A stretch of DNA of 64,000 bases. Origin: Escherichia coli. GTDB lineage: Bacteria > Pseudomonadota > Gammaproteobacteria > Enterobacterales > Enterobacteriaceae. Both the position numbers and the translations under genes were made by a program. Below are positions 36,575-52,462 of this stretch, piece after piece. Under the pieces are notes generated by a model that was given only the letters and a program-made list of their open reading frames with translations, had not been told where the DNA came from and ran no database searches. The stretch lies in NCBI GenBank assembly GCA_002099625.1, contig GCA_002099625.1_4857.1. The stretch is one strand, 5' to 3'. Each line of letters begins with the position of its first letter. Position 1 is the stretch's first letter.

Positions 36575-37837
36575 ATGATGAGTAACGAGACCGATAAGAA
36601 CGATCCGGGGTATGACCCGAATACCGACTACGACAATTCGTATCAAAACCCGAATAATATCGATGCAGTACCATCGGTCGCCGACTACTTTGACCGTCGA
36701 CTGTCCGATGCGAAACCCACCACGGCGTACAACGTTAATGATGAGTTATCGGGTTGGAATGACCGTATCCGTCTTACGTTAGGTTTGGGTCTGGCTGCGC
36801 AGCGTGTGACCAACCCCTACATGGGGTTCAACCATATGATGGCGTCGAACCCGACGCCTGTTAACCGTGAGTACGGTGGCCTAACCTTCATTACCCGCCC
36901 TGACTTCAACTTGTGCTTTGACAACATTGCCAACTCGCGCAAGATGTCGAACATGGCTTCTCAGCCGAAATCGTCACTCGACTATTCCATTCTGGCAGCG
37001 TTAGACCCAGATTTTGAATTGGGGTTCTCTGATTCACCGATGGAAGATGGACGAAGAAAGAACCGTTTGGGCACGCCATTCATGAAGGACATTATGTTTG
37101 ACAATCTTCAGGCATTCATACCATTGCTGAGTACGCAGATGCTGAGCCTCTCGGGGATGCCTGACCAGTCTGTCGATAACTGGATGTCTGAAGAAGGTTT
37201 AATGCGCGAACAGTGGGGTATGGTTGACTCCACACATGAAATCAATAACCAGTACAGCATGTCAATGTCGCTGAACAACCCATACGGCAACCCTATCATG
37301 CGAATGATGGGCGTGTGGCTGGAATATATGTCCGGCATTAAGATGGGTAAGTTCAAACCGAAGATGCGTAATTCCATCCAACGTCGCATTGACTACCAGT
37401 CGAGGATGTACGGGTTTAAATACGACGCGCTCGGAAACATCACTCGTTTCTGGACAGCGTGTGTTTGTTGGCCAATGAACGATAACGCCGGTCAAATGGC
37501 GAATGTCGATAACACCAAGCCTCAATTAAATGACGACACCACAATTAACCTCAACTGGCAATGCATCGGGGCGCGCTTCGATGACCCATTGTACATGGAG
37601 ATGTTCAACTTGACGGTGTCTATGTTTAACCCGGATATGATGCCGCAACCAGGGAGCGTTGCAGCGGGCAACTTTATCCCGATTGCTGAAGACCAGCTTG
37701 TGCCGATTGCACCACAGCTACTACCGCTGTTCAACTACTACGGCTATCCGCACATCGACTCCCTGCGTCGTAAACTGACCTGGTATGTTTATCAGGCAGA
37801 TTACCAATTCATCCTTAAACGAGCGGGCTTACTGTAA
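36575..37837 (+). CDS. hypothetical protein (420 aa)
   Basis: ATG at 36575 with GGAG 10 nt upstream; only 22 bp separate it from the divergent minus-strand start. Confidence 0.55.
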   Translation: MMSNETDKNDPGYDPNTDYDNSYQNPNNIDAVPSVADYFDRRLSDAKPTTAYNVNDELSGWNDRIRLTLGLGLAAQRVTNPYMGFNHMMASNPTPVNREYGGLTFITRPDFNLCFDNIANSRKMSNMASQPKSSLDYSILAALDPDFELGFSDSPMEDGRRKNRLGTPFMKDIMFDNLQAFIPLLSTQMLSLSGMPDQSVDNWMSEEGLMREQWGMVDSTHEINNQYSMSMSLNNPYGNPIMRMMGVWLEYMSGIKMGKFKPKMRNSIQRRIDYQSRMYGFKYDALGNITRFWTACVCWPMNDNAGQMANVDNTKPQLNDDTTINLNWQCIGARFDDPLYMEMFNLTVSMFNPDMMPQPGSVAAGNFIPIAEDQLVPIAPQLLPLFNYYGYPHIDSLRRKLTWYVYQADYQFILKRAGLL

Positions 37838-40797
37838 TGACTACGAAAACGTACGACGCATTATCGAAAGACTTGCTACTGATGGCACATAACCCATCAG
37901 CAATGCAGTCATTAATGCTGAACCAGCTCCAAGACGTGCAGGACGCCGACGGGCAAATCCTGCTACGTGACCCGACCGACCCGGTGGTCTACATGACCGA
38001 AGTCGGAATTACGATGGGTCACACGATTATCCAGGGCGATCGGGACACCATTCCGAAAATGTTCCCCTCTATGGCACAAACTCACGACGATCTGTTTCGC
38101 CATATGTCTGACGTGGATTATGTCGATGTTTTTGCCCAGCCATCACAAGCGACCTTACTGTTGCTTCTAGATGTCGACTCTCTATTAGCGAAGGCGATGC
38201 CGTTAAACGTGGCAGGTATTCGTAAAGTCGTGATTCCACGGGATACCGTCTTTACTGTTTCAGGTTACAACTTTGCCATTCAGTATCCCATCGAAATTCG
38301 AGTGCTGCCGTATGGTACCGTTGATAATCCAGCCTTCCAGGTCTTGTGGATTACCGAAACCCAGTCACCGATATCGCCCGTAACCACTAACGCGTTGGAC
38401 TGGGAACTGACAAGTGTTCCTAGCACACCGTCGCAGATACTGGCTATCCGTATTCCGGTGATGCAGTACAGTGTAAAGGACGAGAACGATACGTTGTTGG
38501 GGCAGAACACGTTTGTGATGACGCGCACGTTCACCAACAAGTTCTTCTACGCACGGGTGTGGAATAAACCGTCCAATTCAAACACCTGGACAGAAATCCA
38601 CCACACGCACAGTCGTGACGTTTACGATCCAAACACACCTACGGCGCTGATTCAAGTCGTTAACCAATCCATTCGCTGTACGATACCGTCTATCTACATG
38701 GCGAAGAACCTGGTAAGTGGTGAAATCCGCATGGACGTATATACGACCATCGGGCCACTCGACCTCGACGTTTCTGCATTTCCGGCGGACGAATACACCT
38801 TCTCATTGCGCGACTTGAACGGTGAATACGACGCGGGATACATCAATCCGTTGAAATCATTCTCCATCAAAATGTTGGTTGCGGAAGAAGGCAGTTACGC
38901 CACCGGGGGGCGTACACAACTTTCGTTTGATGAGCTGCGTGACCGTGTGGTAAACAATGCAGTGGGGATTCGCAAACTGCCAGTAACAGAGAAACAGTTA
39001 GAAGCCACGGTATCGGATTACGGCCTGACCTTGTCCAAGCCGAACGATTACGTAACTGGGCGTACTTACTTCCTGACTGCGCCGATGCCGGAGTCCACGT
39101 TATCTAAAGTGAGTTCCCCTATCGGGACCATCACCGCCCCGCTGTACTTTAGCTGGGATGAACTGGTGAAACTGCCGACGGTCCGTATTAACGGCAACCG
39201 TTTGACGATTGAGCCGGATACGCTGTATCGCTTCACGGATACCAGTCTGCAAATCGATGCGGAGATGACCATCCTTGCGAAGACCATGCGTAAAGAAGAT
39301 TTGGTTAACGCGGGTAACACTAACCGTTACCTGTTCACGCCGTTCCATTACGTGGTGGACATTAACAACAAATCTTGCGATGTTCGTATTTACCAACTCG
39401 ATAAACCGCAGTTGAACTCAAAACGTTTCGTTAGCACCAACGTGACAACGGAGCTGAGTGTTGTCACTGCAGATTATCAGATTGAGAAAACGAGCGAAGG
39501 TTATATCCTGCGCACTGTGACTAAGTCAGAACCGCCATACCAGGCGTTAAGTGATGACCAAGTCTTTGCACAGATTTCCTTCTCGCCACGCAACGCAGAC
39601 GGTAAGTTGGCGTACATCAACGGCACCTTAGTGGGTCGTCAAGGTTCGGAGCGTGTATGGGAATTCTTGTTGAAAACCAATCTCGATGTTGACCGTAACG
39701 ATGAGCTGATTATCAACAACACCCGAATCACCACCGAAGTGGATGTGGACACACCTGCACCGTTGTTAACCGAGTATAACGTGTTCTACGGCTGTACGGG
39801 TTACTACCCCGGTAATTACGAACGCGCTGAAATGGATACAATGATTGTACCGCCTGCACGCGATGGTATTGGGATTACTCATGAGATTTTCAAAATCGAG
39901 CTGGGTAAAGCCATGTCCTATTACTGGCGAAAAGCACGTGCAGTAACAGACAGCATCAACTACGAATACTACCAGAAGGATGTTCTGGCGTATTGGGAAA
40001 AGGATGTTATTAAAACCAAAGACGATGGTGTAACGCCTGAGTATACGTACGACCCTAATGCTGTTCCACCGTTGCAAATCACGTACCTGCATCGCAAAGG
40101 CGATCCGAAAATAGACCCGGCCACCGGTGAACAAGAAATCGCACACCACGTTGGGGAGCAAATCTTCGACGGGAACGGTCAGCCTATTATTGCGAAGCCG
40201 CGCAGTATTAAGTTCCGTAGTGAAATGGCTGTCTTTGATGCCCGTTATAAGTTCGCAACCACGAAAGCGGTTAAAACGTACCTTGATAGCGTAATTGACA
40301 ACATCATCAACTATGTTACGGTGGTACTGCCTAATCTGAAACCGCTGCTGTTGGAGCAAACTGAAGGCTTCTTTGTTCCTATCACCACGATGGGTTATAT
40401 CGACGTACGTACCGAAGACGGGGTTGTGTCACCACTGCCTGCTGAAAACCAGTTCACTGTCAAATATTACCTCACGGCAGCGAACCGCGCAAACAGCGAG
40501 CTTCTGGCACAAATCCGGAAACGGACTTCGCAAGTCATTAACGATTATCTGTCAACACATCTGACCGTTTCAGCAACCGAGATTGGTAATGCGCTACGCA
40601 CCACGCTTAACGATGCCATTATCGGTGTTGAACTCGACGACATGGGGCCAGATAAAGACCTGCGACTGTTCACTGTCATCACCGAAGCGGCACGTGCCAC
40701 GATTGGTAAGAAGCTCGATATCGAAGCCAATGGCGACATCGGTTTGAAAGATGACATCGTACTGTCGTACAACCGTCACGATACCGAAAAAGAATAA
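37837..40797 (+). CDS. hypothetical large protein (986 aa), possibly virion structural
   Basis: Long ORF ATGA-coupled to the upstream gene; followed by a strong bidirectional terminator; no motif recognised. Confidence 0.6.
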   Translation: MTTKTYDALSKDLLLMAHNPSAMQSLMLNQLQDVQDADGQILLRDPTDPVVYMTEVGITMGHTIIQGDRDTIPKMFPSMAQTHDDLFRHMSDVDYVDVFAQPSQATLLLLLDVDSLLAKAMPLNVAGIRKVVIPRDTVFTVSGYNFAIQYPIEIRVLPYGTVDNPAFQVLWITETQSPISPVTTNALDWELTSVPSTPSQILAIRIPVMQYSVKDENDTLLGQNTFVMTRTFTNKFFYARVWNKPSNSNTWTEIHHTHSRDVYDPNTPTALIQVVNQSIRCTIPSIYMAKNLVSGEIRMDVYTTIGPLDLDVSAFPADEYTFSLRDLNGEYDAGYINPLKSFSIKMLVAEEGSYATGGRTQLSFDELRDRVVNNAVGIRKLPVTEKQLEATVSDYGLTLSKPNDYVTGRTYFLTAPMPESTLSKVSSPIGTITAPLYFSWDELVKLPTVRINGNRLTIEPDTLYRFTDTSLQIDAEMTILAKTMRKEDLVNAGNTNRYLFTPFHYVVDINNKSCDVRIYQLDKPQLNSKRFVSTNVTTELSVVTADYQIEKTSEGYILRTVTKSEPPYQALSDDQVFAQISFSPRNADGKLAYINGTLVGRQGSERVWEFLLKTNLDVDRNDELIINNTRITTEVDVDTPAPLLTEYNVFYGCTGYYPGNYERAEMDTMIVPPARDGIGITHEIFKIELGKAMSYYWRKARAVTDSINYEYYQKDVLAYWEKDVIKTKDDGVTPEYTYDPNAVPPLQITYLHRKGDPKIDPATGEQEIAHHVGEQIFDGNGQPIIAKPRSIKFRSEMAVFDARYKFATTKAVKTYLDSVIDNIINYVTVVLPNLKPLLLEQTEGFFVPITTMGYIDVRTEDGVVSPLPAENQFTVKYYLTAANRANSELLAQIRKRTSQVINDYLSTHLTVSATEIGNALRTTLNDAIIGVELDDMGPDKDLRLFTVITEAARATIGKKLDIEANGDIGLKDDIVLSYNRHDTEKE

Positions 40798-40843
40798 AAA
40801 GCACTACCCTCTCCTTCGGGAGAGGGTAGCCTTTTATTTTATT
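40793..40843. terminator. bidirectional intrinsic terminator between convergent genes
   Basis: Hairpin CTACCCTCTCC-ttcg-GGAGAGGGTAG (40804-40829) with CTTTTATTTTATTC downstream and an A-run upstream. Confidence 0.7.
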
Positions 40844-42572
40844 CGCCGTCAAGCATGTTTTTGCGATTATTGCCTTTCACCAACGGGTTACGTTTGGCCA
40901 GGTTCAGTATCGTCTGCAGTGTAGCGGCAGCACCGCAACAACGACGCACCAACGACAGGTTACGTCGCAAGCCGACGAAGAGGTCTTCATCCCCGTCTGG
41001 GGAGAATAACACCATCGAGAGTTCACGACCGTCGGTACGCAGGCCAGAAGGCTGATTAAGCTCATTCATGATGACTTCGCTAATCAGGTTAACGTATTCA
41101 ACGTTATCCTTGGTTGCTTTCTGGAACTGCTCCAACACTTTAATCGTGTTGTTAACCGCCTTATCCAGCGCACTGTAACGATTCAGGTTAGTCGCAGCGG
41201 TGTCGTTGGTAAAGCCTTGTTTACCTAACGTTACCACTACAGCCAGCAACTCACGTTCGTCACCAACCGATAACGTGCCTGCCTGGCGCATTTGCTCTAA
41301 GCACTCGCGTCCCAAGAACGCAGATGCTTGTGCGTTGACCAATACCTTACCAGGCACGAAGTCCACACCATCATCATGACCCACTAAACCACGAACTTTG
41401 TTTTCTGGGATAACGACCAAAGGTGCAGTAGCGTATTCGAATCCTTTGCGGGAAACGTCGCTGATGATGAAGTTCATCGTGGTGTTCAGCTGCGCTAACG
41501 CCTGACCGAAAATAAGCGCGGTGTCGTGTGCTGCTTTGTTAACTTGCTTACCGTTGTGCGTGGTGGTTGAACCTTGCTGATTCTTAAAACCTTCGGCGAC
41601 GCTTGGGTCAATCATCGCTTTAAAGGCACTCTGGAGCGAGCCAAAGTAGCCGATAAGTTCGCTGGCAACATTCGACATCTGATGGAAGTTCAACAGGTTC
41701 GGAATACGCACACCGGCTTCGCGAGCAGACTTCGGTAACGCCTGCCAGGCTTTCTTACCCACTTCAATCGGGTAGATACCGTACGTCACGTTATGTTGTA
41801 ACAGGGTATCTAACAGATCGTGAATAACCTGCTGGCTTGACTGACGTTTCTTAGTGTAGCCTTTGAACAACTCAGTGAACGGCGAACGACCCAGTGCGCT
41901 GCTCAAGTCGTTCAGATACTCTTCCGCGTTCATGTTCGTAAACACTTCGTCGGCCATCGCGATAGCCAAGTTCAGGTTTTCCAGGTCACGACCTTTCAGA
42001 CCCTTAGAGGCTTCGATGTATGCATCTTTCACTGCGCTGATTTTCAGCTGACCGATGATAGTGTTTTCGGTCTGGGAGAAACTCTCTGCTTTTTCGCCGA
42101 CTTTCTCAGCGTAACCTTCGCCGTCGAATTCGCCATTACCAGCAAACCCGTTACCATTGCTGATAATCCAACCGATGATTTTGATAATCGCGGTCATGAT
42201 TAACACAACCAATCCCACTTTACCTGCATTTGCCCAGGATTCGAGCGCAACAATAGTCTCTTTCTGGTGCGTGCGGGTATAGTTCGAGGTCAGGATTTTG
42301 CGAACGGCTTCGGGAATTGTACCTGGGCGAGAAGATTCAACCGCGACGGCGACATCTTTCGACAGACCTGCGCGACGAACTTCGTCAAGAATCGCTTCAA
42401 TTTGCAGAATCAGTCGAGAGCCGTAGATTAAGTCGGCTTCGTTGCGTTGCATGTACAGATTGAGCTGGTTGACAGAATCAATACGCTCGGCCATACGTGA
42501 ACGCAGGACTTCACCGATCTCCCCCAAACGCCATTTGGGGTGGGTGGCGTTACCTGTCATTTCCATGCTCAT
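40839..42572 (-). CDS. hypothetical protein with one predicted transmembrane helix (577 aa)
   Basis: Long ORF; hydrophobic segment VGLVVLIMTAIIKIIGWII. Confidence 0.55.
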   Translation of the reverse strand: MSMEMTGNATHPKWRLGEIGEVLRSRMAERIDSVNQLNLYMQRNEADLIYGSRLILQIEAILDEVRRAGLSKDVAVAVESSRPGTIPEAVRKILTSNYTRTHQKETIVALESWANAGKVGLVVLIMTAIIKIIGWIISNGNGFAGNGEFDGEGYAEKVGEKAESFSQTENTIIGQLKISAVKDAYIEASKGLKGRDLENLNLAIAMADEVFTNMNAEEYLNDLSSALGRSPFTELFKGYTKKRQSSQQVIHDLLDTLLQHNVTYGIYPIEVGKKAWQALPKSAREAGVRIPNLLNFHQMSNVASELIGYFGSLQSAFKAMIDPSVAEGFKNQQGSTTTHNGKQVNKAAHDTALIFGQALAQLNTTMNFIISDVSRKGFEYATAPLVVIPENKVRGLVGHDDGVDFVPGKVLVNAQASAFLGRECLEQMRQAGTLSVGDERELLAVVVTLGKQGFTNDTAATNLNRYSALDKAVNNTIKVLEQFQKATKDNVEYVNLISEVIMNELNQPSGLRTDGRELSMVLFSPDGDEDLFVGLRRNLSLVRRCCGAAATLQTILNLAKRNPLVKGNNRKNMLDGE

Positions 42573-43012
42573 GAAATTTGCCCTTTCAATTCTGCCATGT
42601 AGAAACCAACCACTTCCATAAAGCGGCTAATCCACAGACCGACGGTTTCCCAGATATCTTCCCCGAGTGCCTGGTTGAAAATCTCACGAACTGAGAAACT
42701 TTCCAGAGCTTTAGCGCCACCATACACGTTGCAGTAACGATTGCAGTACAGACCCACGGTCATGTCCTCAATCACGCCCAAATCAACACAGTACAGCTCG
42801 TTAACGTCAGAGACGATGTTACGCATTACCGGACGTAAAAACGTCCCAGCGGCCTCTGCAGCGCCATATTGGCCATTATCAGCCAGTACCGCGTTATACG
42901 CCAGTGAGAAAGCAACCAGGCCGGTCAAAGCACGTTGGGCGTGTACACCTTTCCCTTCGTTGGTACGTTTGAAATCCAGTACCAGGTTATTTAAAGAAAC
43001 TTTATGCGTCAT
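42569..43012 (-). CDS. hypothetical protein
   Basis: 147-aa ORF, ATGA-coupled. Confidence 0.5.
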   Translation of the reverse strand: MTHKVSLNNLVLDFKRTNEGKGVHAQRALTGLVAFSLAYNAVLADNGQYGAAEAAGTFLRPVMRNIVSDVNELYCVDLGVIEDMTVGLYCNRYCNVYGGAKALESFSVREIFNQALGEDIWETVGLWISRFMEVVGFYMAELKGQIS

Positions 43013-43027
43013 GTTAAGTACCCTTAC

Positions 43028-44380
43028 TTAGGAAGAAGTCGCCTGACTAAGCTTCGCAGAAGCCACACGCAGGTCATTAGAAAGATAGCGTTCCATCGTA
43101 CGCTGATAATCCACCCCAGCACGTTCACGACGACCACCAGGGGTCAACGTTTTCATGATGAAGCTAAAGACGTTGTCTTTGTCTTTCACGGTTTTCAGTA
43201 ATTCGTCGATAGACGCAATGCCCTGCAGAATACGTTTACGATGTTCGTTCGCTTCTTTCGTGGTGCTACCTTTTAAGGTGTTCAGCTCCTCCACTAAGTT
43301 ACGACGCATCGTCTCAAAACGTTCCTGCGGCGGATCGTAGATGGTGTTGCGTGGGTCGTTCACAATCAGGCCGAACGCGACTGAGATAGTCGTGAAGAAC
43401 AGGCCGACTGGGTTGGACGATGCCACAATCAGCAGCGAAACGTTAAGCATTTCCAGCATCAGATGCACACCGTAGTTCATGTACGACGCGTTCCGGCAGA
43501 GATAGAATTGAGACGTTTCGATTTTGTACAGGGCTGACGCCAGGTACGGGGCTGCACCAAAGCGAGCTGCGAAGTCATCTGCAGCACGTTCCCAGGTACG
43601 GTTAGCGAACCCTTCCGAACCGGTAACAAACGGACGCTCAAGCAGAATGTCTGTCACCAGATGCATGTAGATGTTCTCTTTAGACATCTCTTTGCAGATA
43701 GTTTCCGGCTGATTCACTTTGGTGTTCAGCATACGTTCAACGTCTTTTACGACTTTCAAACGCACAGTCGGGTCTTCGGTTTGCATCATGCGGTTCGCTG
43801 CAGCATCCGCAATCAGGTTCGTTACTACCGTACGCATCAAGGTACGGAAATAGTAATAGACGTGGCCGACTTCATGTAGAATAATCGCCGCGACTTCTAA
43901 ATCCGTTAACTCGATACCGGTCAGTAGTTTCGGGGTCAGCCAAAGTGGGGACGGCACCTTGCTGAGTTCGCCTGAAAGCTTCGCATTTTTATCGTCGAAC
44001 TCGCCGTTCAGCTCGTTCTCTTTTAAGAACTTACTGTAGACATCCAGGTCGGTGTTGCCCTGCACCATCTTGCGTTGCAGGTCGGCGATGATTGGGTTGT
44101 TCGCGTCGAGCTTCGGTGGCTCCACACCCGCAAACACAACGTCCGCCACACCTAAGTCGGACCCGTTACGAGGCAGGACTGTAATACCGTTGTTGTCAAA
44201 GACCCAGGCAGCAATACCAGAACTCTGATAACCCGCTGGCGAGAAGTCGCCCGCATCACGGAACTTACGTACCACTTCCGCCAAAGAGGCGAGTTTCTTT
44301 TTATCTTGGAATCCGATGGACTCCGAGGCCACGGCTTTCGCGTCGGCCAACGAGGTTATGTGCTTTTGCCAGTGTCCCAT
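43028..44380 (-). CDS. HExxH zinc-metallopeptidase-like protein
   Basis: 450-aa ORF containing AAIILHEVGHVYYY (HExxH in a hydrophobic helix context); the third zinc ligand was not identified. Confidence 0.45.
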   Translation of the reverse strand: MGHWQKHITSLADAKAVASESIGFQDKKKLASLAEVVRKFRDAGDFSPAGYQSSGIAAWVFDNNGITVLPRNGSDLGVADVVFAGVEPPKLDANNPIIADLQRKMVQGNTDLDVYSKFLKENELNGEFDDKNAKLSGELSKVPSPLWLTPKLLTGIELTDLEVAAIILHEVGHVYYYFRTLMRTVVTNLIADAAANRMMQTEDPTVRLKVVKDVERMLNTKVNQPETICKEMSKENIYMHLVTDILLERPFVTGSEGFANRTWERAADDFAARFGAAPYLASALYKIETSQFYLCRNASYMNYGVHLMLEMLNVSLLIVASSNPVGLFFTTISVAFGLIVNDPRNTIYDPPQERFETMRRNLVEELNTLKGSTTKEANEHRKRILQGIASIDELLKTVKDKDNVFSFIMKTLTPGGRRERAGVDYQRTMERYLSNDLRVASAKLSQATSS

Positions 44381-44450
44381 TTAGACGTTCCTTTTAGAAA
44401 ATACGTTACCCACAAATCAGTATAGCAGACACCATATTTGAGAGTAGACC

Positions 44451-46235
44451 ATGGAAATCAATACCTATTACGCACCCGAGGATGTCATCGCTAAAGAGTG
44501 CAAGCACGTCGCTTATGCGACGGACGAAGAAAAAGAAAATGACTTTGTCCTCATCAAAGAGGTCATCCATACTAAGGATGGCAGGCTTATCCCGCGCTTG
44601 GTAATGCGTGAGAATTTAAAGCGTCCGGTGTACGTTACCCGTGAAGAATATCGTAACCACCAGGAGAAAAAAGAGTTCGAAGAAAAAGGAAAATGTCAAG
44701 AACTCTGGACTACTGATGCGCAGATGGCGAAGACGTTGCAGATGGGTTTAGGTGCGCGTTTCCCTGACCCGAAAAAGAACCTGCGGCGTGTTTGTACTAG
44801 CCCGTACGTTTATTGGGCCGACTTACCGATTACCAGCTGGATTAAACAGAAATACTTAAAACGCTGGCCGAACAACATCAGTCCTAACCGTCTTTGCGTA
44901 TACGACGTGGAGACCAACGAAAAGGACGGCACGAAGGAACCCTGGATCGTGTCATTTATCTTAGATGATGAAATCCATTTCTTTGGTGCTAAGAACTATA
45001 TGGACCGTATCGGTAAAAACGCGGAAGAAGTCATTCTCAAAAAAGCACAGGAACTGTTAAGCAAAATCGAGTTCGACGAGAAAGACAAAAAGACTGGCGA
45101 GAAGGTGACAAAGACCAAAGACATTATCAGTGGTTATAAAATCTTCACCTATACCTGCGCTACAGCAGGGCAGTGTATCGTCAGGATGTTCGAAGAGATT
45201 CATCCGCGTCTTCCTGATTTGCTGGTCGCATGGAACCACCAGTTCGATATTTCACGCATGTTAGAAACCTTGCAGAAAGAAGGTATCGATCCGCTGGGTG
45301 TCTTTAACCATCCGGATGTGCCGGAGAAATACCGTCGTCTGTGGTTTAAAGAAGACCAGGCGAACAAAAAGACGGAATCCAAGTCACTCACCAAAGCACC
45401 GTCTCAACAGTGGCACGTACTCTACTGTACTGCGTCTTTCTACTGTGTGGATGCCATGGTGCTGTTTCGTTCGTTGCGTGTCCACGAAGGGCAACGTCCT
45501 TCGTACAAGTTATCTGCCATACTGTACACCGAACTCGGTTTACACAAACTCGACATTCCTGGACTGCCGTATGAAGATAACCTGCAATGGCACATAAAAG
45601 CACAACGGGACTACCCTGCCGAATATGCCGTATACAACATGATGGATAACTTGTTAATCGTGTTGCTGGATAAGAAGACGAACGACCTGTCTTCAGCAAT
45701 ATCCATTCTGGCAGGTTTCTCAATGTACGATATCTTCCCGTCGCTACCAAAACGTATCTGCGTGGCCTTTACCTATTATCTGTATGACAAAGGATACGTC
45801 ATCGGTTCCGTAGGGTCTGCAATGCGTAACGATTACGATGAAGAGGTTATCGGTACAGACGGTTGGATTGTTACCCTGACGGCATGTATGAATGCTGAGA
45901 ACGGTCTGAATAACATTCTGGAGGAGATTGACGAATATTACTCTGCGTTCCGTGGTCAAACTGCGGATGCGGACTTAACCCAGGCTTACCCATCGGCCAC
46001 AAACATGATGAACCAGTCTCGTGAGACCACACTCATTGAGCTGCTATCCATCAATGGGGTTAGTGAAGAGATTCGACGTCGCACGGGCGTCAACTTAACT
46101 GCTGGGCGAGTTAATGCCATGGAAATAGCGACAGACTTCTTCTGCTTACCGGACAAAGACACTGTCCTGTCTACGTTCTTACGTAAGCAAGGGGAAGTAG
46201 TGACAGAGCCTATGGAGTACATCTGCGGGTTCTAA
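44451..46235 (+). CDS. DnaQ-like 3'-5' exonuclease domain protein, probable N-terminal fragment of a split family-B DNA polymerase
   Basis: Exo I LCVYDVETNE (D-x-E), Exo II AWNHQFDISRM (N-x2-3-FD), Exo III YAVYNMMDNL (Y-x3-D) in the correct order and spacing; no clear polymerase motifs A/B/C in this 594-aa ORF. Confidence 0.6.
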   Translation: MEINTYYAPEDVIAKECKHVAYATDEEKENDFVLIKEVIHTKDGRLIPRLVMRENLKRPVYVTREEYRNHQEKKEFEEKGKCQELWTTDAQMAKTLQMGLGARFPDPKKNLRRVCTSPYVYWADLPITSWIKQKYLKRWPNNISPNRLCVYDVETNEKDGTKEPWIVSFILDDEIHFFGAKNYMDRIGKNAEEVILKKAQELLSKIEFDEKDKKTGEKVTKTKDIISGYKIFTYTCATAGQCIVRMFEEIHPRLPDLLVAWNHQFDISRMLETLQKEGIDPLGVFNHPDVPEKYRRLWFKEDQANKKTESKSLTKAPSQQWHVLYCTASFYCVDAMVLFRSLRVHEGQRPSYKLSAILYTELGLHKLDIPGLPYEDNLQWHIKAQRDYPAEYAVYNMMDNLLIVLLDKKTNDLSSAISILAGFSMYDIFPSLPKRICVAFTYYLYDKGYVIGSVGSAMRNDYDEEVIGTDGWIVTLTACMNAENGLNNILEEIDEYYSAFRGQTADADLTQAYPSATNMMNQSRETTLIELLSINGVSEEIRRRTGVNLTAGRVNAMEIATDFFCLPDKDTVLSTFLRKQGEVVTEPMEYICGF

Positions 46236-46287
46236 AACAAAAAAAAGAAAGGCCTCTCTACCCTAGGGTAGAGAGGTACTTTTATTT
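46236..46287. terminator. bidirectional intrinsic terminator between convergent genes
   Basis: Hairpin CCTCTCTACC-ctag-GGTAGAGAGG (46253-46276) with TACTTTTATTT downstream and AAAACAAAAAAAAGAAA upstream. Confidence 0.7.
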
Positions 46288-46786
46288 AGCCGCCGAAGGC
46301 GTGCATAACCAGCGAACGCAGGTCCGGGTCGTTCAAGCGACGGGCCAGGCGGTCAACGTCGTTGGTATCACGGAAACGGCCTTTATCGGCGCAACGTGCG
46401 TAACGAATCAGCATGTTAATAAAGATAACGAAGACTTCACGTTCGTCACGATTCGGGAAGTTCTCACTGATACGGTTATTAGCAGCCGGTGCGTAGAAAA
46501 TACCGTTACGGTGCTTATTAGCCGCTTCTACAAAGGCGTAGAAACCATCCAGGAAGGCCTGACCGCGCAGTTTAAACAGCTCACGGAAAGAGTGATGCAG
46601 CTTATTATACGCATCTTTCTCAGCCTGGGTACCAGATGGTTTACGTGGGCCGGCATTGTTACCTGCTTCATCGAGCATCGTGGTGATCAGTTTAACACGA
46701 TATTGGTCGTCGTTGCTGTAAGAAGCGCTATCACGGACCACGCCTTCTGTACGCGGGTCAAGGGTAGTAGTGTCTTTCTTAGTCAT
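46286..46786 (-). CDS. hypothetical protein
   Basis: Track ORF starts at 46861 and overlaps the upstream gene by 62 nt; the ATG at 46786 (MTKKDTTTLDPRT...) is the likelier start. Confidence 0.45.
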   Translation of the reverse strand: MTKKDTTTLDPRTEGVVRDSASYSNDDQYRVKLITTMLDEAGNNAGPRKPSGTQAEKDAYNKLHHSFRELFKLRGQAFLDGFYAFVEAANKHRNGIFYAPAANNRISENFPNRDEREVFVIFINMLIRYARCADKGRFRDTNDVDRLARRLNDPDLRSLVMHAFGG

Positions 46787-46799
46787 GAGGAAACAATCC

Positions 46800-48098
46800 T
46801 TAGGTGATGTGGAATTTAGGGATGTACTCTTTAACCACGGTTTCACGACCGTGCATCGCACCCATTGCAGTGGTCATAACGTTCGAGAAGCCGGAAGAGA
46901 TATCCGCAGCGATTGCCCGTGGCTCTTCTGCTTTGTGTGCAGAGGCGCACGCCGCACAACAGTCTACGTGACCTTGCTGACATAAGATGGGTCGGCGGAG
47001 TCGAACAACTTTACCAAATTGAGTTTTCAAATACTCTTCAGTAAGTTGGGTAACTTTACCGTTAATCATCGCGTTCATGCCAACATAACGCTTGTAGTTA
47101 TACTGGTTAATTACAAGTGCATGTGTCAGTTTTGTCCCGCAATCTCCAGGCACGATTTTGTGGTTCTGGAAGATCATCTGGATGATACGTACTTGCTCCC
47201 CGCCCTTGGCAGTTTCTGCACCACGCATGAAGGAACCTTCTCGCGTATCATTGAATTTCTCTACCAGATACTTCATCCCGGTCTGATCAACTTCCATCAG
47301 ACTCGTTGGGATTAAGGTAAAATCTGCCCCTTCTTTAAAAGCGGTCTGAATACCGTACATCAGCATCAGCTTACGGCGACGCATACGCGCTTTAGGCGAG
47401 CTGTAGAACTCAACGGACTGGTCGCCACTCAACCACTCTTTATCAAGTTCGTCGAGAGCTTTTTCAATCATAACGATAACCGCAGGGTTATCCAGCTCGT
47501 CTTTATGCTTCAACAGCAACGCATCACGTACCTTATACGCGTCAGGATGCGTTGTAAGGCTTCTAATAGTACCGGTTGGGGCTATCCCACGACACAACGG
47601 GGCAAGCTCGTGTAGACCCCCTACAAAGCGTCCTATCATGTATGGTCGAATCGCGTCTTCGTTGTCTGGATCGGTGTCATCATATTCCACACAACGTTCG
47701 TACATCTCTTTACGGTAGGCTAGCGGGTCACGAGACTCTGCCAGATACGGGAGACGGGTACCGAAAGCGTAATAGATAGCAATCCAGTTAAAGACATAGC
47801 GACCCACGGTAGTCGGAATAGGACCAGCTAAACCTGGGTACATCTCAGGACGCAATTCAAACTGCTCTTCCGGCACGAACAGCTCTTCATCTTTTTTGCA
47901 CCCTTCAATCGGCACCCACTTGGTTTCTTCGTTTTCCCAGTAATGGGGCAAGCCGTCAATGTAGTTCAGGTCGTATTGCTCAGGTGGCTCACCTTTTTCA
48001 TTAAAGATAGCCACGTTGAAAACCGCAATACGCCACACCAGTCTACGCCAAGCTTCTGCTTTACACGCAGCGACCAGATAATCAATCTTGTTCATCAT
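46800..48098 (-). CDS. hypothetical protein with Cys-rich C-terminal cluster (432 aa)
   Basis: Long ORF; C-terminal CQQGHVDCCAACASAHK suggests a metal-binding site. Confidence 0.55.
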   Translation of the reverse strand: MMNKIDYLVAACKAEAWRRLVWRIAVFNVAIFNEKGEPPEQYDLNYIDGLPHYWENEETKWVPIEGCKKDEELFVPEEQFELRPEMYPGLAGPIPTTVGRYVFNWIAIYYAFGTRLPYLAESRDPLAYRKEMYERCVEYDDTDPDNEDAIRPYMIGRFVGGLHELAPLCRGIAPTGTIRSLTTHPDAYKVRDALLLKHKDELDNPAVIVMIEKALDELDKEWLSGDQSVEFYSSPKARMRRRKLMLMYGIQTAFKEGADFTLIPTSLMEVDQTGMKYLVEKFNDTREGSFMRGAETAKGGEQVRIIQMIFQNHKIVPGDCGTKLTHALVINQYNYKRYVGMNAMINGKVTQLTEEYLKTQFGKVVRLRRPILCQQGHVDCCAACASAHKAEEPRAIAADISSGFSNVMTTAMGAMHGRETVVKEYIPKFHIT

Positions 48099-48966
48099 CT
48101 ACCTCCGCGTCCCCACTAGCGTATATGACTTTCAACGCTTCCAATCCTTTCCGCAAGATTTCTCCAGGCGGGACGTTGTCGACGTTCAACAGGGCAAGGT
48201 TCTTTTCTAAGTCACCGTAAGCCCCGTCAAACTCCGCATGAGGAATAATCGATAAGCCCACTGCATACATTGTCAGCAAATCAATTTCGCTAATGTCTTC
48301 TACGCGAAACTCTAACGACTGCTGCACTACCGTTAAGTCTGGCTCAGCAGGCAGATTCATAAAGACAAACGCTGACGGGTTCTCAGGGAACAACCGCAAG
48401 TAAGTGACGATACGCTCTTGGCGCACATCATCGCTGTTTCGTTTCTGGCTTTCCAACGACTCTGCTGCTAAGAAGTTTTCCATCACGGTAAGCACGCGTG
48501 GACTTACAACAGTAATCAGGTCTTCAAAGTGCAGGTTTTCGTCACCGTAAACATAACGACACATGTTCTCCAGGATATACTCTGGTGTCTCACCAGAGGA
48601 GACGATCCCGTAAAGAGCGTCGCTATCTTCAAACTCTTCGAAGGCTTCCAACACACCGTGAAGGATACGTACGGTTTCTTTCGGTTTCTGGAAGACGATT
48701 TGTGGATTAAGTCCGATACCGAGGCGGTTGCCTAATCCAACCGCTACCTTCACGATAATGGATTCCAGACGGACAGTTTCGTCCGCGGGGTCAGACAACG
48801 GGTTGCTATAAACATCGGATAACGCCACATCGTAACCGTAATCCATACCGAGCGTCACTAAATCTAGCATCGGTGCTGCACGACCTTCGTGACGGTTGAC
48901 TGTCAATACAGCCGCATAGTCGGTATAAATATCAATCATGGCTCTGTTCCATAGTGAAAAGGGCAT
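48082..48966 (-). CDS. hypothetical protein
   Basis: 294-aa ORF on coding strand. Confidence 0.5.
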   Translation of the reverse strand: MPFSLWNRAMIDIYTDYAAVLTVNRHEGRAAPMLDLVTLGMDYGYDVALSDVYSNPLSDPADETVRLESIIVKVAVGLGNRLGIGLNPQIVFQKPKETVRILHGVLEAFEEFEDSDALYGIVSSGETPEYILENMCRYVYGDENLHFEDLITVVSPRVLTVMENFLAAESLESQKRNSDDVRQERIVTYLRLFPENPSAFVFMNLPAEPDLTVVQQSLEFRVEDISEIDLLTMYAVGLSIIPHAEFDGAYGDLEKNLALLNVDNVPPGEILRKGLEALKVIYASGDAEVDDEQD

Positions 48967-48979
48967 TCATACCAAGGCG

Positions 48980-49010
48980 AATAAAAAAAGAAAACGGGGC
49001 CGAAGCCCCG
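48980..49010 (-). terminator. intrinsic terminator downstream of 49019..49390
   Basis: Hairpin CGGGGC-cgaa-GCCCCG (48995-49010) followed on the minus strand by TTTTCTTTTTTTATTCGCC. Confidence 0.6.
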
Positions 49011-49018
49011 AATTTCTA

Positions 49019-49390
49019 TTAATGTCCCGTCAGATCTTTCTCCAGCTCCTTTAACGCACGTTCACCTGCCACCTGTTCGCCGGCTTTGGCGATAATCGCT
49101 TTGCGACGACGGATGTTGTCGAGCATCAGGAGTATCTGCCAGCGAGGGCGGTCGAGGAACTCGTCTATCGACATCCGGTAGTTTTCACCGACCTCTTCAC
49201 GTAAGTAAGTGGCGTACCAGATATCGTAAAGACTACCGTATACCGGGTTTTCAAAATCCGACAACCCTACCTGATGGTCGCCGGTATTAAGAGCCAGTGT
49301 ACGGTCATACGCTTCCAGAAGCTCGTTATGGGCTTCCTGATACGTAATAGGACGTGTGCTACGCTGCTTGAAGAGAGAGGTGGTATCCAT
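49019..49390 (-). CDS. hypothetical protein
   Basis: 123-aa ORF. Confidence 0.5.
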   Translation of the reverse strand: MDTTSLFKQRSTRPITYQEAHNELLEAYDRTLALNTGDHQVGLSDFENPVYGSLYDIWYATYLREEVGENYRMSIDEFLDRPRWQILLMLDNIRRRKAIIAKAGEQVAGERALKELEKDLTGH

Positions 49391-49434
49391 CTTGAGCGTT
49401 GTGATGATTTGCTCGGACGGAACGTCTTCCTGGT

Positions 49435-51405
49435 CTAGCCAATATCGGCGTATTGATCCAGCAAGAATTTCTGAATCTCGGACACCACTCGAGAGAGCAC
49501 GAAAAAAACCCTGTCCGGTGAGATGGTAACAATACCACGATACAGACCGTCTTTCTCGCCGTGTGTTTTACCGCACGCCGGGCAGCGTTTACCCATGTAA
49601 CCGAATACCGCTAAACGTGTACGTTCGTTGTATTCAGCAATTGCGTTTTCAAACTGGCCAACGTAGATACGGTCGGAAGACAGCTCTTCTAGCATCTCAA
49701 CGATTTTCGCTGTGTCGGTTTCAGTTTGTGGGATAACCTGCATTTCACCGTTTACTTCACGTTGCTCGTTAACAGTGATAGATTTCACCATGTGAGCATA
49801 GCGCGTTAAGCGACGGGCTTCCGCAGTTAAACGCATATGGGATTCACGTTCACGCTCGGTAGCAAATTCAGACAGCGCTGCCGTAGTTGACGCGTTAACA
49901 TCTTCAATCCACTTCTCAGTGGAGTCAAAGAAGCTACCCAGGGTAGAACGGCCAAATTCAACACGCACGTCGTGGTATTCAAATACCGAGGATGGGTCAA
50001 CCTGATGCGCCGCGATATATTCGCGCTGTTCAGCAATGGAAATCACTGGACGCTCAGTACCGCGTTGACGTGCCCACAGTTGTTTCTGCAGGTCGCTAAA
50101 CAGACCGGAACCGAAACGGATACAGCGTGCGATATTCAGCTTCACATCTTCCTGCTGAGTACAACCGTCCTCACCGCACATCAGCGTCCATGGAATACCA
50201 GACGGCCATTTCGCTTGCAGCGGACCCAGAATTACCAGCCAGTAGTCAGCCAGATCAATGGTATCCAACAGCACAGTACGCAGATCGTTACCCGCGCAGT
50301 CGATGGTTGCTTCAGTAACAAACTGAAGTGCGAATTCAACCATGTGACGCATGTACACACCAGAAGACGACGACAGCATCAAACCGTAGGTCTGCATACC
50401 GATGGTCGCAGTTTCCAGTGTGAGGCGCATGTCGAAGTCACAAAGGTCACGTTCATGCGGTGCGCGGAAGCCCACGTAGATACCTGTGGCCGGCAACCAA
50501 ACCATATTCGGAATACCCGACTTACGTACACGGCGCAAAGCAGCCAGCGCGCCAGTGTGCATATTGTCACGCGGTGCAATAGCACCAGAAGCCTTACCGT
50601 CCGGCAACATCACACGCTGTTCCCAAGCGGTGTCGCCACGGTCCAGTGCACCCGCGAATGCTGGTACGCCGTCCTGTAGACGTGGCGGGGTCATGTTCAA
50701 AGCACGATAGATGTCGTCGTATACCTGTTGCTGTTCAGGGCTTTCGAATAGCAGCCGGCCGTCTTTCGGTGAACGTTTAATATTACCGAGGAACTTTTGC
50801 AGGGAGTCTGCAATGATGTTAGGGTCTTGTTTCAGACCAATCAACATCTTCGACTGTGTCAGAATACGATCAGCTTCGTCTTCACCCATTTCGGCAGTTT
50901 CAGCTAAATGGGTATTACCGAAGTTAATCTCACGCACCTGTTGTTGTTCCGGAACCTTCGGTGCTGCATCTTCCATTTCTTTTACAGCCGGCTGGGCCGG
51001 TGCAACCGCTTCCGGAGCTTTTGGCTGCGGAGCAGGTTCTACCGCAGGCGCTTTCTCTACTACCGGTTCCGGGGCACGATGTAGGTGCTCCTGCACCTGT
51101 TCAGCAAAAGTCTGAGGTGCCGGTGGTACAGGCGCAGCAGGTTCAGGCAACGCCTCTTCTACAAACGTCGGACGCTCAAGCTTAGGCTCAGGACGATGAT
51201 AGTGTTGGTGATAAACTTCTTCTGCACGGGCAAAAGAAAAATCGGGATTGGCTTGTTTAATAGCCATGATGATTGCATCCGAGGTCGCGTCATCAGGCAC
51301 GGTCGGAAGAATCATCTCTTGTTGGGTAGCAGCCGCCACAGGGGCTGGCTGGTCGGGATTAGGGCGACGGGCATTACCCGGACGCTGATCTTGGATCTCA
51401 GACAT
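49435..51405 (-). CDS. hypothetical protein with Pro/Ala-rich N-terminal linker and C-terminal CxxC motif (656 aa)
   Basis: N-terminal PAAPVPPAPQ...APAVEPAPQPKAPEAVAPAQPAV; C-terminal KRCPACGKTHGE. Confidence 0.55.
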   Translation of the reverse strand: MSEIQDQRPGNARRPNPDQPAPVAAATQQEMILPTVPDDATSDAIIMAIKQANPDFSFARAEEVYHQHYHRPEPKLERPTFVEEALPEPAAPVPPAPQTFAEQVQEHLHRAPEPVVEKAPAVEPAPQPKAPEAVAPAQPAVKEMEDAAPKVPEQQQVREINFGNTHLAETAEMGEDEADRILTQSKMLIGLKQDPNIIADSLQKFLGNIKRSPKDGRLLFESPEQQQVYDDIYRALNMTPPRLQDGVPAFAGALDRGDTAWEQRVMLPDGKASGAIAPRDNMHTGALAALRRVRKSGIPNMVWLPATGIYVGFRAPHERDLCDFDMRLTLETATIGMQTYGLMLSSSSGVYMRHMVEFALQFVTEATIDCAGNDLRTVLLDTIDLADYWLVILGPLQAKWPSGIPWTLMCGEDGCTQQEDVKLNIARCIRFGSGLFSDLQKQLWARQRGTERPVISIAEQREYIAAHQVDPSSVFEYHDVRVEFGRSTLGSFFDSTEKWIEDVNASTTAALSEFATERERESHMRLTAEARRLTRYAHMVKSITVNEQREVNGEMQVIPQTETDTAKIVEMLEELSSDRIYVGQFENAIAEYNERTRLAVFGYMGKRCPACGKTHGEKDGLYRGIVTISPDRVFFVLSRVVSEIQKFLLDQYADIG

Positions 51406-52060
51406 TAGCCGCTTCCTCGGTTTCTACTACAACGTCGTTGTGATCGACGATGGCGTTTTTAGGGAGTTCTTTCGAATTATTAGCCAAAGCTTCGGCCAAC
51501 AGAACTTCGGCTTGTTCCACGGTATGACCGTTATTCAGCGCCTGCTTCACGAACTTCACTTTCGCGTTATACGTGGAGAAGATTTCGATACTGGTGCCCT
51601 GAATATCCATCGCAAGCATGTTTGCCCGCTGGTCAATCAGGGACAGTTCGGTGTGGTCGACGTGGAACTGGTCTTTGATTTCTTTCCACGTTTTGCTGTT
51701 ATCGTTCAGCATGTCAAACACCGGCACCGCCTTAGCGTCTGCCTCAACAATCAGTTTACCGAACAGCTCTTTGCCCTGTTGGCACATGCCAAGGAAAGCC
51801 GCCTGTGCTTCATCCAGCGCTTTCAATGTGAAAGCTTTCAGCTCTTCGTGCGCAATGGCTTCAGTTACTTCACGCTCCCGATCGATTTTGCCTGACAGGA
51901 ATTCGGTACTTTCGATAAACACAGCTTGTTTTTTCAACACAGACTGCATCATCGCCTTGACGAAATCGCGTGCGTCTTTACGTGGGTTATAAGCGGGTTT
52001 CTTTTTGCGACGACTCATCGTAATAATCCTTTTGAAATTAGGGGTTGGGTGTATACACAA
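51398..52060 (-). CDS. hypothetical protein with basic N-terminus
   Basis: 220-aa ORF; MSRRKKKPAYNPRK... Confidence 0.5.
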   Translation of the reverse strand: MCIHPTPNFKRIITMSRRKKKPAYNPRKDARDFVKAMMQSVLKKQAVFIESTEFLSGKIDREREVTEAIAHEELKAFTLKALDEAQAAFLGMCQQGKELFGKLIVEADAKAVPVFDMLNDNSKTWKEIKDQFHVDHTELSLIDQRANMLAMDIQGTSIEIFSTYNAKVKFVKQALNNGHTVEQAEVLLAEALANNSKELPKNAIVDHNDVVVETEEAANV

Positions 52061-52078
52061 TATACACCCAAAACGTGA

Positions 52079-52462
52079 TTAACTTGCATCGTGTGGAACA
52101 GTCACCCAATCGTGCCATTTTTCAGAGTAAAGCCGATAAGCCATCTTTGGATTCTGATCGACGCTACCGGCCGGGTTCTCATTCCACAACACGTACGTAT
52201 ATAACTCGTACGACGAAGTGTTACGGATACTTGACGTGCGGGTGACGTAGTACGTCAACCCGCGTTGGTTAAGGAACAGGCCGCTGTAATGTTCAGTGAC
52301 CATGTAGTAGTGAAACGCCTGGTTGATAGTGGCGTCGGTGCAGAGTTTCTTAGCGACGTCTTCTACGCCGGGATACGCCTTTAGAATGTTTTCGAGAAAA
52401 CTTGCTAAAGTCATTCCGATGTAGGGTGGCAGCGGCTCTGCTGGACGCGGCGGAGTGAGCAT
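52079..52462 (-). CDS. hypothetical protein
   Basis: 127-aa ORF; overlaps the 3' end of the helicase ORF in another frame, so the exact start is uncertain. Confidence 0.35.
   Translation of the reverse strand: MLTPPRPAEPLPPYIGMTLASFLENILKAYPGVEDVAKKLCTDATINQAFHYYMVTEHYSGLFLNQRGLTYYVTRTSSIRNTSSYELYTYVLWNENPAGSVDQNPKMAYRLYSEKWHDWVTVPHDAS

Follow-up and report, generated by a model that had tools for sequence, protein, structure and literature searches.

Does a gene that encodes the three exonuclease motifs of a family B DNA polymerase (PolB) specify a proofreading exonuclease only, or a part of the polymerase itself? The question is raised by an ATG-started open reading frame (ORF) which encodes 594 aa plus a stop codon and lies within a 64-kb stretch of DNA, referred to here as the window (Table 1). 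The preliminary description of this locus, made from the letters of the sequence, read the ORF as a standalone DnaQ-like exonuclease domain lacking recognizable polymerase motifs and proposed a split family B DNA polymerase whose polymerase domain would be encoded elsewhere. The ORF as delimited there is confirmed in its extent, start codon and strand, and it is bracketed, as stated there, by a divergent start region and a bidirectional terminator-like site. The window comes from an SPN3US-like Salmonella jumbo phage (Seoulvirus): its DNA is 97.7–98.7% identical to that of SPN3US-group phages, the gene order around the ORF matches that of SPN3US, and the encoded protein shares 99.8% aa identity with SPN3US gp44, while its counterpart in NC_027402.1 is annotated as “DNA polymerase.”

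The ORF is the sole + strand gene among − strand neighbors. A sigma-70 promoter scan found no site in the intergenic region upstream, and its total counts corresponded to the shuffled expectation. As the phage uses its own RNA polymerases, the missing sigma-70-like site is expected and uninformative. The hairpin downstream is a perfect palindrome with a stem of 11 bp when read on the + strand or 10 bp on the − strand, a loop of 4 nt and T-runs on both strands. Terminator-like sites show no excess in the region (two found, 2.2 expected from shuffles), and the weight of this hairpin therefore comes from its placement between convergent genes. An additional 462 bases found in the SPLA5c/SPFM relatives were considered as a possible intron or intein of the polymerase gene and rejected, since they make up a small additional ORF that lies two genes upstream.

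Table 1. Features of the ORF and its flanks; positions refer to the window, residue numbers to the ORF product.
Feature	Position	Strand	Basis or remarks
Divergent intergenic region, 70 bp; presumed promoter region and RBS	44381..44450	.	Between − strand gene 43028..44380 and the ORF
Gene for the probable N-terminal subunit of a split family B DNA polymerase (DNAP-N type; SPN3US gp44 orthologue)	44451..46235	+	phrog_3011, SPN3US identity, NC_027402.1 annotation
N-terminal beta-rich domain, aa 1–120	44451..44810	+	AF2 pLDDT 77–98, six beta strands; upstream of the part aligning to RB69 from residue 82/91
3′-5′ exonuclease domain and return of the N-domain, aa 121–455	44811..45815	+	hhalign, hmmsearch, Foldseek; AF2 pLDDT mostly >90
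Exo I, D152-V-E154 (V150-Y-D152-V-E154)	44904..44912	+	D152 and E154 invariant (41/41); aligned with RB69 D114-I-E116
Exo II, N262-H-Q-F265-D266	45234..45248	+	N262 in 40/41, D266 in 41/41; aligned with RB69 N217...F221-D222
Exo III, Y395-N-M-M-D399	45633..45647	+	Y395 and D399 invariant (41/41); aligned with RB69 Y323-NIID327
First palm-domain segment, aa 456–533	45816..46049	+	Aligned to RB69 ~383–436; AF2 pLDDT 35–52 despite high conservation
Polymerase motif A, D506-A-D508-L-T-Q-A-Y513-P514-S515	45966..45995	+	Aligned with RB69 D411-LTSLYPS
Lineage-specific C-terminal tail, aa 534–594	46050..46232	+	Beyond the RB69-alignable region; pLDDT 46–76
Bidirectional intrinsic-terminator-like hairpin	46252..46277	.	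Between the ORF and convergent gene 46286..46787/46861 (−)

Membership of the ORF in a non-polymerase exonuclease family is not borne out by the homology searches. The profile phrog_3011, labeled “DNA polymerase,” matches it at full length, residues 4–586 falling on profile positions 1–574 of 576 (E = 6e-251). Pfam gives no match even at E ≤ 10 and a single-sequence phmmer search against the PDB returned noise only, so that a family profile is required to place this protein. With such a profile, hmmsearch against the PDB identifies RB69 gp43 (E = 2.8e-9), and hhalign comparison with seven unsplit T4-like PolBs reaches 99.1% probability and E = 1.1e-18, in agreement with the PolB assignment proposed initially. 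The hhalign span links ORF residues 129–533 to RB69 91–436 and passes through Exo I–III and motif A. The AF2 model of the ORF alone has a mean pLDDT of 83.5 and is confident over residues 1–455. Its top Foldseek matches are RB69 gp43, archaeal PolB and Pol epsilon (E ~1e-12, probability 1.00), the whole model matching RB69 gp43 across 458–500 columns.

Exo I, II and III follow one another in the canonical order originally noted, and each conforms to its PolB consensus (DxE; Nx2–3[F/Y]D; Yx3D). The acidic and tyrosine residues of these motifs do not vary among 41 homologues that are 22–75% identical. A triad of this kind might also mark an RNase H-like superfamily DEDD exonuclease with no replicative role, one that serves repair, recombination or the breakdown of host DNA and has no relation to the polymerase; a relative in Serratia phage Moabite is in fact annotated as “ribonuclease H-like superfamily protein,” and no other replication gene adjoins the ORF. 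This explanation is very improbable, because the alignment exceeds the DEDD core and takes in PolB-specific flanks from RB69 82/91 to 436, motif A included, because the ORF co-occurs genus by genus with the chain carrying Pfam domain PF20286, and because the phiKZ proteins form a 1:1 complex (PMC13648687).

Contrary to the initial statement that recognizable polymerase motifs are lacking, profile searches locate polymerase motif A at residues 506–515. The initial description itself named such a match inside the ORF as refuting, and its statement on missing polymerase motifs accordingly fails. In both profile-sequence and profile-profile alignments, D508 is the counterpart of the metal ligand D411 of RB69, and Y513 that of RB69 Y416. 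All 41 homologues retain D506, D508, Y513, P514 and N521, and motif A forms the most conserved block of the ORF, with 23% of columns at least 90% conserved vs. ~11% elsewhere. The AF2 model falls to a pLDDT of 35–52 around the motif, and the motif A stretch on its own is weak in the profile search against the PDB (domain i-Evalue 19–120); the weight of the assignment derives from colinearity, the hhalign result and the invariance of the residues. Motifs B (Kx3NSxYG) and C (DTDS) are truly absent from the ORF, and to this extent the original statement stands. The ORF product is a polymerase fragment that extends from the PolB N-terminal domain through the exonuclease into the first palm segment, where motif A lies. 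With palm residues 456–533 and an invariant motif A it is more than the standalone DnaQ-like domain described at first: DnaQ/epsilon-type proofreading subunits have the DEDDy exonuclease fold and catalytic residues in common with it, but not the PolB-specific N-terminal domain or the palm fragment. The tail that follows the palm segment contains the conserved residues R543, L549, G552, N555, E558 and P567 and may contact a partner chain.

Such a partner has been described for the same phage species, where SPN3US gp44 and gp18 were termed a “split subunit DNA polymerase” (PMC5694885; PMC5105663). The gp18 orthologue is a protein of 759 aa assigned to PF20286 (“Divergent Family B DNA polymerase,” divDNApol). 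Its gene was not found within the 64-kb window; it occupies 11544..13823 in SPN3US and 172610..174889 in the closest relative, ~27 kb from the ORF on the opposite strand, a position ~9.6 kb past the right end of the window. From these relatives, 98–99% identical in sequence, the gene is expected in this particular genome as well. The two proteins match one unsplit PolB family, phrog_262, in a colinear manner, ORF residues 120–450 on profile positions 91–369 and partner residues 417–543 on 576–701. A split family B polymerase, as initially suspected, is upheld, and its polymerase domain is indeed encoded elsewhere as regards motifs B and C, motif A being retained on the ORF.

The partner carries motif B as K157-TLNNGMS-G165 and motif C as S418-D419-T420-D421-S422, with K157, N160, N161, S164, G165, D419 and D421 invariant in its family. 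Comparison of the partner family with PolB by hhalign is moderately significant (88.6% probability, E = 2.6e-6) and aligns partner residues 76/87–185 with RB69 432/451–588 and residues 497–545 with RB69 706–754. When the partner is modeled alone, pLDDT drops below 50 exactly at motif B (164–186) and motif C (417–421), and motif C is a coil instead of a beta-hairpin. A Foldseek search with this model is weak and serves as a consistency check only, with RB69 gp43 as the top match (E = 4e-3, TM ~0.2). No intein-like sequence is evident on inspection of the ORF C-terminus or the partner N-terminus.

The location of motif A bears on an alternative in which the ORF encodes a standalone proofreading exonuclease subunit comparable to E. 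coli epsilon, the gp18-type chain is self-sufficient with both active-site aspartates, and the C-terminal 140 residues of the ORF act as a docking module with a fossil motif A. Two computational studies point in this direction. Kazlauskas and Venclovas placed both aspartates, D229 and D398 of phage EL, in the polymerase chain and regarded the other ORF as the exonuclease (Kazlauskas and Venclovas, 2011; PMC3201878), and Iyer et al. described polymerases without a fused exonuclease, the latter being encoded elsewhere (Iyer et al., 2021; PMC7824862); the Pfam result, which shows no polymerase domain in the ORF, agrees with them. In an EL-like protein whose numbering yields D398 as the second Asp of motif C, however, D229 follows motif B, which departs from the canonical A-B-C order. 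The D229 column contains D in 24/29 sequences and N in the other 5/29, SPN3US gp18 having N226 at this position, and in the AF2 model the residue sits between helices of a helical insert rather than on a palm beta strand. Furthermore, no partner segment aligns with motif A of RB69, alternative hhalign alignments included, whereas the ORF residues are invariant and belong to the most conserved block of the protein. Two other partner sites were tried as a second motif A and rejected: the N-terminal “RDIDVxxxY,” whose aspartates are variable (D17 in 17/28, D19 in 19/28), and the invariant D288, which, like N226, belongs to the helical insert that follows motif B. An exonuclease subunit that contributes nothing to the polymerase site is accordingly improbable.

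Both chains are found in similar numbers of phage records, 295 for the ORF and 302 for the partner. Their counts are equal in the seven genera common to both top-ten tables, namely Pseudomonas (81/81), Erwinia (62/62), Vibrio (23/23), Serratia (21/21), Aeromonas (20/20), Klebsiella (16/16) and Ralstonia (13/13), and in seven ORF/partner homologue pairs the longest contigs are of equal size. ORF homologues are present in phiKZ-group, EL, Erwinia and Vibrio jumbo phages. Among the best-scoring 150 of 743 representatives with E ≤ 1e-30, nearly all are ~490–680 aa long and no fused form occurs. P0216 (894 aa) was considered as a natural fusion of both halves and rejected, as its C-terminal extension bears no relation to the partner (0.2% probability in hhalign). 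Two halves lying 27 kb apart on opposite strands could also be what is left of an intact polymerase gene broken by genome rearrangement, the ORF then being a decaying or inactive remnant. Since the ORF is intact and of equal length across hundreds of clusters, every catalytic residue is invariant and the gene has a terminator-like site of its own, this explanation is extremely improbable and effectively refuted by the conservation pattern; the phiKZ complex is, moreover, active in vitro (PMC13648687).

The ORF belongs to the family of the phiKZ-type split PolB (SPN3US gp44 + gp18; phiKZ DNAP-N + DNAP-C) and is effectively the gp44 gene of SPN3US, with no substantive difference. The difference concerns how that enzyme has been described, motif A being placed here on the ORF chain whereas two computational papers assign it the exonuclease only. 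A similar distribution of motifs is seen in the split T4-like polymerases gp43A/gp43B of IME13, Aeromonas AP1 and Acinetobacter fHyAci03, in which motif A likewise belongs to the N-terminal fragment, together with the N-domain and exonuclease, and motifs B and C lie on the C-terminal one. In these, the break falls at RB69 ~503–514, in the fingers, while that between ORF and partner falls at ~432–451, in the palm and before the fingers; the differing positions indicate that the two splits are independent. The gp43A and gp43B genes are adjacent and either lie 53 nt apart, overlap by 4 nt or have ~2 kb of inserted ORFs between them, in contrast to the 27 kb between the genes studied here, and their products are readily recognized as PolB, unlike the ORF with its lack of a Pfam match. 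The unsplit gp43 of T4 and RB69, a single chain of 898–903 aa, has its N-domain, Exo I–III and motif A in an order colinear with the ORF, and RB69 gp43 is the best structural match at 13–15% identity in the structural alignment. Compared with gp43, the phiKZ-type enzyme is extended by ~135 residues on the two sides of the break (ORF 534–594 and partner 1–75) and by ~210 aa of helical insert separating motif B from motif C. Family B polymerases encoded as two genes are also known in archaea, such as PolB1/PolB2 of Methanothermobacter and the split-intein PolB of Nanoarchaeum, where the break positions differ from that of the ORF/partner pair and, in Nanoarchaeum, the halves are rejoined by the split intein.

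Taken together, the ORF product is very likely the N-terminal subunit of a phiKZ-type replicative DNA polymerase of family B that is built from two polypeptides, with a gp18-type protein as the second chain. The alignments place the break inside the palm/polymerase domain and not at the boundary between exonuclease and polymerase. The ORF chain would provide the PolB N-terminal domain, a complete DEDDy 3′-5′ proofreading exonuclease and the first strand-helix element of the palm with motif A, in which D508 would act as metal ligand and Y513 would take the position of RB69 Y416. The partner chain would contribute the fingers (motif B with K157, N160/N161 and S164-G165), the long helical insert, motif C, the KxY region and the thumb. 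Assembly of the two chains in a 1:1 ratio would then create a polymerase active site from both, with D508 presumably located beside D419/D421 and the tails (ORF 534–594, partner 1–75) possibly forming the interface between the chains. Under this model neither chain would polymerize alone, and the exonuclease site would reside wholly on the ORF chain. It is considered likely that the active site is composite in this sense, D508 and Y513 being contributed by the “exonuclease” chain and motifs B and C by the product of a gene 27 kb distant, contradicting EL D229 as motif A; that PolB underwent independent splits on more than one occasion, always shortly after motif A; and that the tails would form a new module between the subunits.

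The split polymerase of phiKZ-related phages is already known, from computational work in 2011–2012, the naming of SPN3US gp18/gp44 in 2016–2017 and the biochemistry and cryo-EM of the phiKZ enzyme since; the original description is reportedly that of Cornelissen et al. in 2012. The 2011 placement of motif A in the polymerase chain, which the present evidence contradicts, appears to be wrong, and this is the one modest addition. An October 2026 preprint describes phiKZ DNAP-N and DNAP-C as a stable 1:1 complex active in vitro in primer extension, with a 2.1 Å cryo-EM structure homologous to B-family polymerases (Basu et al., bioRxiv 2026.09.30.755723; PMC13648687). This structure probably shows already which chain carries motif A, and the composite-site reading, even if true, may therefore not be new. 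The result has little weight as a discovery and is of practical use only. A fitting annotation for the ORF is [quoted passage not shown] related records bearing the less accurate labels “DNA polymerase II,” “T4-like DNA polymerase,” “RNase H-like protein” and “hypothetical protein.” A gp18-type chain expressed alone should be inactive if its motif A comes from the other chain.

The ORF, the only plus-strand gene amid a run of minus-strand genes, begins with ATG and was recovered with the coordinates and length assigned to it in the preliminary description. The divergent start region and bidirectional terminator reported there are also real: a 70-bp spacer separates the ORF from the upstream gene, and a perfect palindrome with T-runs on both strands begins 16 bases after the stop codon, followed by a convergent gene. 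A promoter scan found no sigma-70-like promoter in the spacer, which is uninformative since phages of this group rely on RNA polymerases of their own for transcription. The 5 kb surrounding the ORF share 97.7-98.7% identity and their gene order with SPN3US-group Salmonella jumbo phages (genus Seoulvirus). At the protein level, the ORF and its SPN3US counterpart, annotated "DNA polymerase" in RefSeq (YP_009153338.1), share 99.8% identity.

Coordinates of the ORF, its flanking elements and other genes of the window
Feature	Coordinates	Strand	Remarks
ORF	44451..46235	+	ATG start, 594 aa
Divergent upstream gene	43028..44380	-	450 aa
Intergenic region	44381..44450		70 bp, between ORF and divergent gene
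Perfect palindromic hairpin	46252..46277		T-runs on both strands
Convergent gene (mechanical ORF)	46286..46861	-	GTG start at 46861; 62-nt overlap with next gene
RNA polymerase fragment	46800..48098	-	phrog_2962 "RNA polymerase beta subunit"
RNA polymerase fragment	54103..56208	-	RefSeq "RNA polymerase beta subunit"
RNA polymerase fragment	56208..58445	-	RefSeq "RNA polymerase beta subunit"
Helicase	18521..20083	+	"replicative helicase" in closest relative
Helicase	52350..54113	-	matches phrog_16 "DNA helicase"

The product of the divergent upstream gene has no Pfam match, falls in phrog_2767 (function unknown) and is labeled "beta-barrel assembly-enhancing protease" in one relative and "virion structural protein 1" in SPN3US; it carries an HExxH motif in "ILHEVGHVYYY" and may be a virion-associated zinc metalloprotease. 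At about 43012..43028, phage SPLA5c has ~462 bases more than the window, encoding an additional 141-aa ORF (L015 29..454) between the homologues of 42569..43012 and the upstream gene; the insertion lies outside the polymerase gene. In SPFM phages the region is longer by the same amount. In relatives, the convergent gene encodes a shorter 166-aa product (46287..46787) and its PHROG match starts at residue 25; its true start is probably at 46787.

The ORF gave no Pfam match even at E<=10, and a single-sequence search of the PDB returned noise only. Among PHROGs, it matches phrog_3011 "DNA polymerase" over its full length (E=6e-251), and residues 120-450 weakly match phrog_262, the ordinary PolB family, at positions 91-369. 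An alignment of 41 of the 95 collected homologues (22-75% identity) contains 19 invariant columns, including D152 and E154 (Exo I), D266 (Exo II), and Y395 and D399 (Exo III), and its profile retrieved RB69 gp43, an unsplit PolB, from the PDB (E=2.8e-9). Foldseek with the AlphaFold2 model (mean pLDDT 83.5; mostly >90 over residues 1-455) returned RB69 gp43, archaeal PolBs and Pol epsilon (E about 1e-12, probability 1.00). The exonuclease identity first proposed from the Exo I-III motifs is thus confirmed far beyond chance.

The further claim that the protein lacks polymerase motifs does not hold. Additional invariant columns (D506, D508, Y513, P514, and N521) lie within DADLTQAYPSATNMMNQSRET, which resembles RB69 motif A, DLTSLYPSIIRQVNISPET. 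In the profile search of the PDB, this stretch formed a third aligned segment (RB69 404-431), weak taken alone and colinear with the two exonuclease segments. Comparison by hhalign with seven unsplit T4-like polymerases (RB69, T4, Vibrio F86, phiM7, syn9, PhiW-14, and moki) gave one alignment (99.1% probability, E=1.1e-18) of ORF 129-533 on RB69 91-436, which spans Exo I-III and places D508-LTQAYPS on RB69 D411-LTSLYPS. Conservation in the protein peaks at the motif A block, where 23% of columns are at least 90% conserved vs. about 11% elsewhere.

SPN3US carries a second "DNA polymerase" CDS at 11544..13823 (759 aa, YP_009153312.1), the protein cited as a jumbo-phage "group 1" divergent polymerase (Iyer et al.; PMC7824862). 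This partner matches PF20286 "Divergent Family B DNA polymerase" (E=4.6e-284) and, weakly, PF00136, and its match to phrog_262 (positions 576-701) is downstream of and colinear with that of the ORF. Across 28 partner homologues, motif B residues K157, N160, N161, S164, and G165 and the motif C stretch S418-D419-T420-D421-S422-T423 are invariant. Against the unsplit polymerases, the partner family aligned at residues 76/87-185 (RB69 432/451-588) and 497-545 (RB69 706-754), and no alternative hhalign alignment touches RB69 motif A. The ORF alignment thus ends at RB69 about 436 and the partner alignment begins at about 432-451, which puts the break within the palm domain, between motif A and the fingers; it is flanked by lineage-specific stretches of ~60 (ORF 534-594) and ~75 residues (partner 1-75). 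Within the window no partner was found: its family profile matched no six-frame segment, and tblastn matches were chance-level. The closest relative, OQ383623.1, has the partner gene on the opposite strand (172610..174889), 27 kb away from the ORF, which corresponds to a position ~9.6 kb past the right end of the window. The proposed outline, a split PolB with its remainder encoded elsewhere, therefore stands, but the cut falls in the palm interior rather than ahead of all polymerase motifs. The partner C-terminal end carries a conserved "NRTRLLSDYY", suggested as a clamp-binding-like signature (Kazlauskas and Venclovas; PMC3201878), followed by a poorly conserved, unmodelled acidic tail; the motif could be a docking site for the clamp-derived Rhc subunit reported in phiKZ.

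Earlier computational work regarded the ORF-type chain as a separate 3'-5' exonuclease and placed both catalytic aspartates on the other chain, at EL D229 and D398 (Kazlauskas and Venclovas, 2011; PMC3201878), and the exonuclease has been described as "encoded elsewhere" (Iyer et al., 2021; PMC7824862). However, in an EL-like protein (L014) numbered such that D398 is the second Asp of "SDTD," D229 falls in "QFADRDLIQS," downstream of motif B and hence outside the canonical A-B-C order. Its column holds D in 24 of 29 sequences and N in five, Asn being the residue of SPN3US-group proteins (N226 in SPN3US gp18, the partner). In the partner AlphaFold2 model, a confidently predicted helical insert has N226 and the invariant D288 between its helices, not on a palm strand, and the N-terminal "RDIDV" aspartates are variable. 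The reading of EL D229 as motif A is probably a mis-assignment, and the only invariant, RB69-alignable motif A of the two-chain system is that of the ORF. Modelled alone, the ORF is confident to residue 455, with pLDDT 35-52 over the conserved 460-560 segment. The partner model is mostly confident but drops under a pLDDT of 50 in motif B (164-168, 176-186) and motif C (417-421), the latter as coil without the canonical beta-hairpin, and its Foldseek matches to PolB are weak (RB69 gp43 top, E=4e-3). Each half is thus poorly modelled at exactly those palm-core elements that would need to pair across the two chains, a pattern that fits co-folding without proving it.

A precedent for PolB catalytic motifs divided over two chains is provided by T4-like gp43A/gp43B, of which three cases (IME13, AP1, and fHyAci03) were mapped on RB69. 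In these phages, gp43A ends at about residue 503 (AP1: 486) and gp43B starts at about 514-520; motif A is on gp43A where the canonical pattern is recognisable (IME13, fHyAci03), and all three carry motifs B and C on gp43B. This break lies ~70 residues further along than that between ORF and partner, and the two genes are adjacent, in contrast to the 27 kb and opposite strands separating ORF and partner. The differing break position and gene arrangement indicate that the T4-like and SPN3US-type splits are independent events.

Homologues of the ORF occur in 295 phage records and those of the partner in 302, with equal counts in the seven genera common to both top-ten tables (Pseudomonas 81/81, Erwinia 62/62, Vibrio 23/23, Serratia 21/21, Aeromonas 20/20, Klebsiella 16/16, Ralstonia 13/13). 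A search of 1.84 billion representatives yielded 743 ORF homologues at E<=1e-30; almost all of the best 150 measure about 490-680 aa, and no ORF-partner fusion is among them. The matched genus counts and the lack of a fused form among these 150 indicate that the split is ancestral to and fixed in this phage lineage. The one long metagenomic outlier (P0216, 894 aa) was rejected as a fusion, its C-terminal extension of ~330 aa being unrelated to the partner; the extension could be gene-calling read-through or an added domain. Six Pseudomonas jumbo phages (H103-H108; about 267-302 kb, apparently phiKZ group) match the ORF by tblastn in two pieces, which in five (H104-H108) cover 1881 nt, ~150 nt more than the 578 aligned residues require, and suggest an insertion or variable loop in the phiKZ-group version. 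Several SPFM entries (P0039, P0040, P0042, P0051-P0053) combine a high HMMER score with a BLAST query coverage of only 4-11% and resemble frameshifted or miscalled copies of the ORF gene in those records.

The RNA polymerase fragments of the window are pieces of the split multisubunit enzyme typical of phiKZ-like phages and represent, like the split polymerase, another core enzyme in pieces. Neither helicase gene adjoins the ORF, and the inspected part of the window has no gene annotated as RNase H or Rhc-like. None of the ten neighboring ORFs (37837..54113) matches Pfam at E<=0.001 and seven belong to PHROGs without an assigned function; the Pfam-blank neighbors show the strong divergence of the phage group.

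A split polymerase is already known for this very phage species, and experiments in the family support it: according to an October 2026 preprint, the phiKZ counterparts DNAP-N and DNAP-C assemble into a stable 1:1 complex, its 2.1 A cryo-EM structure is homologous to B-family polymerases, and a third subunit, Rhc, combines an RNase H domain with a clamp-like domain (PMC13648687). The present analysis adds modestly to this with evidence that motif A lies on the ORF chain, correcting the earlier computational assignment. If so, the active site would be a composite of both chains.
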